Assembly: GCF_963921235.1 (NCBI RefSeq)
Contig: NC_086097.1
Location: 16,616,001-16,680,000, forward strand
Direction: 5' to 3'
Origin: Mobula hypostoma
Taxonomy: Eukaryota
Length of the DNA: 64,000 nucleotides
This document shows positions 6,885 to 8,477 of the stretch, in pieces. The position numbers were made by a program, and so were the translations under genes. Within the stretch, counting starts at the first letter, position 1. Each line of letters opens with the position of its first letter. The notes beneath the pieces are model-generated. The model saw nothing but the letters and a program-made list of their open reading frames with translations, ran no database searches and was not told the DNA's origin.

Positions 6885-8477
6885 CAGTGACATGCAAAAG
6901 TTTGGGCACCCTGGTCAAAATTTCTGTTACTGTGAATAGCTAAGCGAGTAAAAGATGAACTGATTTCCAAAAGGCATAAAGTTAAAGATGACACATTTCT
7001 TTAATATTTTAAGCAAGAAAACCTTTTTATTTCCATCTTTTACAGTTTCAAAATAACAAAAAAGGAAAAGGGCCCGAAGCAAAAGTTTGGCCACCCTGCA
7101 TCGCAGTACTTAGTAACACCCCCTTTGGCAAGTATCACAGCTTGTAAACACTTTTTGTAGTCAGCTAAGAGTCTTACAATTCTTGTTTGGAGGATTTTCA
7201 CCCATTCTTCCTTGCAAAAGGCTTCTAGTTCTGTGAGATTCTTGGGCCATCTTGCATGCACTGCTCTTTTGACATCTATCCACAGATTTTCGATGATGTT
7301 TAGGTCAGGGAACTGTGAGGGCGATGGCAAAACCTTCAGCTTGCGCCTCTAGAGGTAGTCCATTGTGGATTTTGAGGTGTGTTTAGGCTCATTATCCTGT
7401 TGTAGAAGCCATCCTCTTTTTATCTTTGGCTTTTTTACAGACGGTCTGATGTTTGCTTCCAGAATTCGCTGATATTTAATTGAATTCATTCTTCCCTCTA
7501 CCAGTAAATGTTCCCCGTGCCACTGGCTGCAACACAAGCCCAAAGCATGATCGATCCACCCCTGTGCTTAACAGTTGGAGAGGGGTTCATTTCATGAAAT
7601 TCTGCACCCTTTAATCTCCAAACATACCTTTGCTCATTGCGGCCAAAAGGTTCAAAGGAACATCGAAACAAGCCTGATGCATTTTGGAAACAAGTCCTGT
7701 GGACTGATGAAGTTAAAATAGAACTTTTTGGCCGCAATGAGCAAAGGTATATTTGGAGAGAAAAGGGTGCAGAATTTCATGAAAAGAACACCTCTCCAAC
7801 TGTTAAGCATGGGGGTGGATCGATCTCGCTTTGGGCTTGTGTTGCAGCCAGTGGCACAGTGAACATTTACTGGTAGAAGGAAGAATGAATTCAATTAAAT
7901 ACCAGAAAATTCTGCAAGCAAACATCACACCGTCTGTAAAAAAGCCGAAGATGAAAAGAGGATGGCTTCTACAACAGGATAATGAGCCTAAACACACCTC
8001 AAAATTCACAATGGACTACCTCAAGAGGCACAAGCTGAAGGTTTTGCCATCGCCCTCACAGGCCCCTGACCTAAACATCGTCGAGAATCTGTGGATAGAC
8101 CTCAAAATAGTGCATGCAAAACGGCCCAAGAATCTCACAGCCTTTTGCAAGGAAGAATGGGTGAAAATCCCCCAAACAAGAATTGAAAGACTCTTAACTG
8201 GCTACAAAAAGTGTTTACAAGCTGTGATACTTGCCAAAAGTGGTGTTACTAGGTACTGCCACGCAGGGTGCCCAAACTTTTGCTTCAGGCCCTTTTCCTT
8301 TATTGTTATTTTGAAACTGTAAAAGATGGAAATAAAAAAGTTTTCTTGATTAAAATATTAAAGAAATGTGTCATCTTTAACTTTATGCCGTTTAGAAATC
8401 AGTTCATCTTTTACTCGCTTAGCTATTCACAGTGACAAAAATTTTGAGCGGGGTGCCCAAATTTTTGCATGCCACTG
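6885..8477. mobile_element. Foldback non-autonomous Tc1 (DD34E, IR/DR type): two inverted copies of the transposase 3' half plus the right TIR
   Basis: TA|CAGTG...CACTG|TG termini; arms 6885-7653 and 7721-8477 are reverse complements; WTDE, QQDN and PDLNIVE motifs with 34 residues between D and E; outer and inner direct repeats GCAAAAGTTTGG(G/C)CACCC at ~6894 and ~7079. Confidence 0.93.

Follow-up and report, generated by a model that had tools for sequence, protein, structure and literature searches.

In Rpmar49 and Rpmar17, two mariners of Rhodnius prolixus, the element's 5' part has been replaced by the 3' part, giving long terminal inverted repeats (TIRs), and Rpmar49, with a TIR of 221 bp, was amplified by true transposition to 13 copies (PMC4678618). 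The origin of such rearrangements in Drosophila has been termed elusive (PMC4161770). Within Tc1, the ends of IR/DR-subgroup elements are about 200-250 bp long and contain two direct repeats apiece, and the left end of Sleeping Beauty carries an enhancer and is the preferred one (PMC5224488); for ZB/SB-type elements, a threshold of more than 80% coding identity within a clade has been applied (PMC9777934).

We analysed a 64,000-nt stretch of DNA (the window) that contains a foldback element of 1,593 bp, whose arms of about 770 bp make up 96% of its length (Table 1). The best overall explanation, which we consider highly probable, is that this is a Tc1 derivative with two right ends that was mobilised in trans and amplified, and that one of its copies inserted here.

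Table 1. Coordinates of the foldback element, its parts and the interrupted LINE, numbered within the window.
Feature	Position	Strand	Remarks
ORF2 of the host LINE, portion downstream of the insertion, reaching into the reverse transcriptase domain	6228..6884	-	RVT_1 E 2e-4, below curated cut-off
Left target-site duplication, TA	6883..6884	.	
Left arm: inverted Tc1 3' half	6885..7653	-	85-87% amino acid identity to P0001
Left-arm subparts	~6885-7105 (TIR)	-	TIR, then transposase codons 340 down to 158
Left-end outer direct repeat, putative transposase site	6894..6913	+	repeat family D4
Left-end inner direct repeat	7079..7098	+	185 nt from outer repeat; family D4
Left-arm lesions	near 7349 and near 7505	-	stop near 7349, frameshift near 7505
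Foldback junction	7644..7654	.	14 nt short of the form found in organism A and F contigs
Unpaired spacer, 67 nt	7654..7720	+	transposase codons ~136-157, with D153, the first catalytic Asp
Right arm: transposase codons 158-340 and 3' TIR	7721..8477	+	DDE_3, E 7.6e-8
Right-arm features		+	D244, E279, spacing 34; frameshift near 7869; 3- and 9-nt deletions
Right-end direct repeats	8263-8283 and 8448-8468		3' TIR of right arm
Right target-site duplication, TA decayed to TG	8478..8479	.	
Host LINE ORF2, part upstream of the insertion	8480..9466	-	colinear with left flank

Global alignment of the left arm (769 nt) with the reverse complement of the right arm (757 nt) found 703 of 757 positions identical. 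The 54 mismatches comprise 33 transitions and 21 transversions (K2P 0.075), and 12 gap columns fall into blocks of 9 and 3 nt, both absent from the right arm; judged against the intact transposase P0001 (below), which retains both segments, these are right-arm deletions. The initial annotation had described just this geometry, with arms of ~769 and ~757 bp around a spacer of ~67 bp and deletions of 3 and 9 bp in the right arm. Both termini start with CAGTG, and each end carries an outer and an inner direct repeat of 20-21 nt, 185 nt apart, which is the IR/DR arrangement. The left TIR passes seamlessly into inverted 3' coding sequence, and the two TIRs are about as diverged from each other as the interior is, with 4-9 mismatches per 100 nt throughout. 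As judged from the comparison of its two TIRs with each other, the element appears to carry two right ends. Its sole novel joint is 7653/7654; the spacer is ordinary transposase sequence that runs on into the right arm. Folding of the central 261 nt gave z = -20, a result equalled in 0 of 200 shuffles. No gene-conversion tracts were detected between the arms (longest identical run 57 nt, P = 0.52), and an Rfam search of the window gave 0 matches at the gathering score. Elsewhere in the window, at 17998-18321, another palindrome, unrelated to this one, occurs as a single copy, with scarcely any spacer between arms of ~160 nt that are 74% alike; its only Rfam matches are weak miRNA-hairpin ones far below the gathering score, and we take it to resemble a non-autonomous palindromic Penelope-type or MITE-like repeat.

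The closest intact protein, P0001 (340 aa, from Logan), came from 23 matches among 210 candidates and is 85% identical to the right arm. It comprises a Sleeping Beauty-type HTH, a Tc3 HTH and DDE_3, matches the catalytic domain of SB100X with an E-value of 3e-80, and has the triad D153, D244 and E279, that is, DD34E; the spacing of 34 is also found in the right arm. Read on the plus strand, spacer and right arm together encode codons ~136-340; read on the minus strand, the left arm encodes codons 158-340. Residues 1-130 of P0001 have no counterpart in the element, in line with the earlier remark that the DNA-binding domain is missing. Triad spacing, TA target site and CAGT ends are those of Tc1 (DD34E). 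The element is nonetheless not an autonomous Tc1, as it retains codons 136-340 only, frameshifted and without a DNA-binding domain. Instead, an inverted half replaces the other half and both arms have transposase homology, as in end replacement of the Rpmar49/Rpmar17 type.

Two other labels were considered and rejected. MITEs are shorter than about 1 kb and hold scant coding remnant (PMC4161770), whereas this element measures 1,593 bp and is mostly transposase-derived; it would be MITE-like in its mode, being mobilised in trans, yet it is not miniature. When compared with the window by BLAST, the element matched only at its terminal and inner direct repeats. Autointegration, in which an end of a transposon goes into a TA within that same element, was rejected because the junction contains no TIR sequence.

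A search with P0001 returned 80 loci on metagenome contigs, 13 on genome contigs and 0 in viruses, which we used for geometry only: none is a close DNA relative, and the long matches to the right part are 63-75% identical. Word searches of the ZB/SB supplementary sequence files, which are partial gapped alignments, gave no match (PMC9777934). The Tc1 transposases L081-L093 lie on mostly short contigs of bacterial genome records and are most likely eukaryotic contamination; L081 is a complete 1,623-bp element with TIRs 99% identical. Two metagenome contigs have inverted repeats around a distant Tc1 relative (L066, 1-938 and 2085-3022, 938 nt, 99.7%; L074, 879-1498 and 5075-5682, 633 nt, 91%), and these may be assembly mirrors or flanking repeats. 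In the window, a faint remnant of a Tc1 transposase C-terminus is found on the minus strand at 30603-30810 (E ~1e-3).

The foldback interrupts ORF2 of a LINE that presumably resembles Rex1/Babar. We compared its flanks with 150 ORF2 homologues from a full HMMER search; six of the LINE homologues were looked up and proved to be 5 unnamed teleost proteins and 1 nameless entry. Both flanks were matched by 17 of the 150, mostly in colinear order, with few exceptions (e.g. P0071, P0105, P0210). When the element and one TA were removed in silico, 15 of the 150 homologues gave a single HSP across the site, 8 of these 15 ungapped within 12 residues. At this empty site, with one TA retained, the Ser-Gly-x4-Tyr spacing is preserved, no LINE sequence is lost and the reading frame is colinear. 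Because removal down to one TA restores a colinear LINE frame, the element entered as one unit, as had been proposed for a single TA/TG site in a LINE. The site is one TA insertion, of which one copy of the target-site duplication (TSD) has mutated to TG.

Of the 24 public runs listed, 20 hold part of the stretch; we analysed X1 (organism A), X3 (organism B) and X15 (organism F) as well as the raw-read run X21, in which 4 reads were placed, with no bearing on the junction. The 17 other runs, with stretch shares of 0.29-0.51, were not counted as evidence. X1 matches both flanks with 0 differences, and the right TSD is covered by records of X1 (0 differences) and X3 (1 difference). The X3 record spans 8451-8644 and suggests that the same insertion is also present in organism B, its 27 letters on the element side being below the 31-letter bridging rule.

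The window has one other copy of the host LINE, which is partial and without the empty-site region. LINE fragments at 4800-5745 and 10375-12103, in opposite orientation and 65-76% alike, lie some way off on either side of the element; we regard them as unrelated copies from a single LINE family. At 12281-13468 there is an open reverse transcriptase frame of 395 aa (RVT_1 E 2e-20), and the LINE copies at 21420-22445, 38490-39640 and 53150-54262 are younger, being 93-96% alike.

The novel joint recurs in the runs. In X1, 30 contigs begin at 7644, preceded by an inverted arm that extends 4 nt beyond that of the window, and 17 contigs at 7653 have the normal parental 5' continuation. In X15, from another organism and another study, 9 contigs carry the left arm into the same junction, with one record bridging 7506-7702, and a deleted derivative joins 7187 to 7666 with the same junction letters. 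Since 30 contigs from one organism and 9 from a second contain the junction of inverted arm and spacer (consensus agreement 0.66-0.67, reads counted from 85% likeness), the foldback most likely belongs to an amplified, multi-copy family that shares a breakpoint, as in the Rpmar49/Rpmar17 type. X1 may be the source of the assembly and would then not be independent evidence. A G at 7649 accounts for 12% of spacer depth in X1, 2.4% in X3 and 1% in X15; the corresponding depths, ~2,100x single-locus depth in X1 and ~310x in X3, are not copy numbers, and parental contigs may add to them. Among the 18 of 3,119 loose ends listed, X3 has no junction entry, and the junction motif had 0 matches in metagenome contigs, a scope uninformative for an animal repeat.

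The form of the junction in the X1 and X15 contigs is 14 nt longer than that in the window. We infer that the window form arose from the longer one by a 14-nt loss between two similar 10-mers, and in this direction because genuine inverted-arm sequence is among the extra letters. None of the 18 of 3,119 loose ends listed has the shorter junction of the window, and no second copy with both ends and new flanks was seen among the run contigs listed, which are short and none of which covers the whole unit. Both observations are what one would expect if a full-length Tc1 had inserted and been rearranged once in place, the foldback itself never having transposed, and this history too would leave a colinear empty site. 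It would, however, have to produce independently a junction that resumes at the place seen in the contigs of organisms A (30) and F (9), an unlikely coincidence when the window form can be derived from theirs by the 14-nt loss, and we give it a slim chance. Further joints near the centre (7187-7666 and 7569-7645 in X15, 7562-7683 in X3) were also present, suggesting shorter foldback sub-derivatives or independent foldbacks, as in Rpmar17.

Compared with P0001, both arms have a common 1-bp frameshift near codon 207, have lost the stop after Y340 and share the changes L233P, D246E, W268S, A309V and R324K. Of the 38 element variants among the 40 of 254 listed, 31 belong to a single arm, 4 (two mirror pairs) are common to the two arms, 2 differ in both arms, and the spacer contains 1. 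The D246E pair (7388/7986) reaches 17-38% of depth in organisms A and B and <1% in F, and so marks a subfamily; the W268S pair accounts for at most 1% of depth in all three runs. These data point to a single, already dead progenitor for both arms, although some of the shared amino acid changes may be lineage differences from P0001, and position 7584, with a left-arm variant frequent in organisms A and B but the consensus base at its mirror 7790, would require later reversion or conversion. The variants at 7584 and 7388/7986 have similar depth in A and B, are near-absent in F and mark a subfamily, which might be the foldback family; the left arm carries both and the right arm one.

Two insertions in opposite orientation with the intervening DNA deleted, or a mirror introduced during assembly, would also give inverted arms, and the two TSD copies do differ (TA and TG) in data that contain no long read. 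These possibilities, which the initial annotation had named as ways in which its reading could fail, seem to us close to negligible. No LINE sequence is lost between the colinear flanks, both arms have one frameshift and one rare variant in common, and the junction is also present in the run of another organism; an artefactual mirror would be expected to be ~100% identical, whereas the arms are 93% identical, that is, about 7% divergent.

The length of the element bears on how it arose. Once the two deleted segments, one frameshift base per arm and the 14 junction letters are put back, the element comes to 1,621 bp. Complete relatives measure 1,622 (L001), 1,618 (L007) and 1,623 bp (L081), with leaders of 378-385 nt; these are the best protein matches with both ends located (49-57% identity) among 7 loci examined, the four others measuring 1,627, 1,641 or 1,687 bp or being without an end. 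From these relatives, rather than from the true parent, we estimate a parent length of 1,619-1,626 bp. With breakpoints drawn uniformly, 1-4% of draws gave a product within 5-25 bp of the parent's length. The equality is a hint of a length-conserving template switch, and selection on size is also possible.

We propose that, in a dead IR/DR DD34E element, an inverted copy of the element's own 3' half took the place of the 5' half. While an excision gap was being repaired from the sister chromatid, the nascent strand on the left would have switched template at the ~200-bp TIR to the opposite strand, copied the 3' half and been joined mid-element to the right-end strand with little or no microhomology. 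In an equivalent route, one sister would undergo a TIR-mediated flip before a position-matched exchange, again with total length conserved. The derivative would have kept two complete IR/DR ends, been moved in trans by transposase of the parent family and been amplified; one copy would then have entered a TA of the LINE, lost 14 nt at its junction and seen its arms drift apart by 7.5%. Among the origins weighed, we put slightly better than even weight on the template switch or its flip-and-exchange equivalent, because identical arms and parental length result.

A head-to-head pair, formed by a local hop or by opposite neighbours and reduced by one deletion that removed both 5' halves, is the published hypothesis for the same architecture in Rpmar49 and Rpmar17 (PMC4678618). 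A local hop of one copy would likewise share derived changes, and the asymmetry at 7584/7790 fits two slightly different copies. Such a deletion does not, however, predict parental length, which chance would give in only 1-4% of cases, and most of the Rhodnius products measure 900-950 bp, their parent being ~1.3 kb long (PMC4678618); we regard this origin as possible but unlikely. Fold-back priming would start from a break in mid-copy, where a resected 3' end folds on a short inverted microhomology by the spacer and copies the 3' half. A short spacer between long arms is the product to expect, as known from work on palindromes in yeast, and by eye one 5-nt word is common to the parental letters before 7654 (the loose end at 7653 in X1) and the end of the inverted arm. 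Yet a 5-nt stem does not yield the longer family junction unless further events are added, and the route alone neither restores the left flank nor explains the conserved length, leaving it in our judgement only a small likelihood.

The initial annotation had read the element as a transposition-competent derivative inserted as one unit and possibly as an undescribed family. The first reading stands as far as insertion as one unit and the junction in many contigs are concerned, but does not extend to current competence: with arms 7.5% apart and its TSD decayed to TG, this copy is an old fossil. As for the second, the architecture is known and already published (Rpmar49, Rpmar17), but the literature searched, which leaves out the repeat libraries (Repbase, Dfam) and subscription journals, does not describe this particular family or mention its TIR words; the accessible parts of PMC5490172 and PMC4877112 contain nothing on end replacement.

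The element extends end-replacement derivatives, published for insect mariners, to vertebrate IR/DR Tc1, with arms that make up nearly the whole element. A family found in at least two organisms and in many copies offers material for studying how end-replacement rearrangements arise, and the match in length between derivative and parent is a checkable prediction that separates a position-matched template switch from a dimer followed by deletion. Many aged copies would also make palindrome decay measurable, through junction deletions and arm-to-arm conversion. More speculatively, IR/DR Tc1 elements might recurrently yield full-length mirrors by a length-conserving template switch at the TIR, hundreds or more vertebrate copies might have outrun the left-end preference, and long hairpin RNA against the catalytic half of the parent transposase, made where host or LINE transcription ran through the copies, might have helped to silence the parent family; we consider this combined reading decidedly unlikely. 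Without evidence of hairpin RNA or of an effect on the host, the element remains a matter of transposon natural history.

A similar overall form is found in Tc4 and Tc6 of C. elegans, foldbacks of ~1.6 kb that consist almost wholly of two long inverted arms; to our knowledge, their arms are not recognisable as Tc1 transposase gene halves. In construction, the element resembles Rpmar49 and Rpmar17, in which an inverted 3' part replaces the 5' part, the long TIRs contain transposase sequence and the element is non-autonomous; Rpmar17 also has additional deletions with the breakpoint at their centre (PMC4678618), and the window junction seems to be a similar case. Those mariners, however, are DD34D elements with short simple TIRs, mostly 900-970 bp long and shorter than the parent, whereas the element described here is a DD34E IR/DR Tc1 of parental length with arms of ~770 bp that account for 96% of it. 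The Drosophila MITE sublineages Dromar7, Dromar11, Dromar28 and Dromar36 likewise acquired unusually long TIRs by end replacement, but in the accounts available it is always the 5' part that replaces the 3' part, and MITEs are there defined as shorter than 1,000 bp (PMC4161770). With the Sleeping Beauty/ZB IR/DR group the element shares ends of ~220 bp with two direct repeats each, the TA target, DD34E and a 340-aa transposase (PMC5224488, PMC9777934); unlike in that group, the coding region is split and mirrored and lacks the DNA-binding domain. Given the left-end preference of Sleeping Beauty, the success of two right ends would be mildly unexpected, any such asymmetry in the parent being hypothetical. 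Engineered donors offer a precedent: Mos1 with two right ends and Mboumar-9 with two left ends transpose in vitro with symmetric ends, best if both are the preferred one, although these donors are artificial and have short TIRs and no long internal palindrome (PMC4505599).
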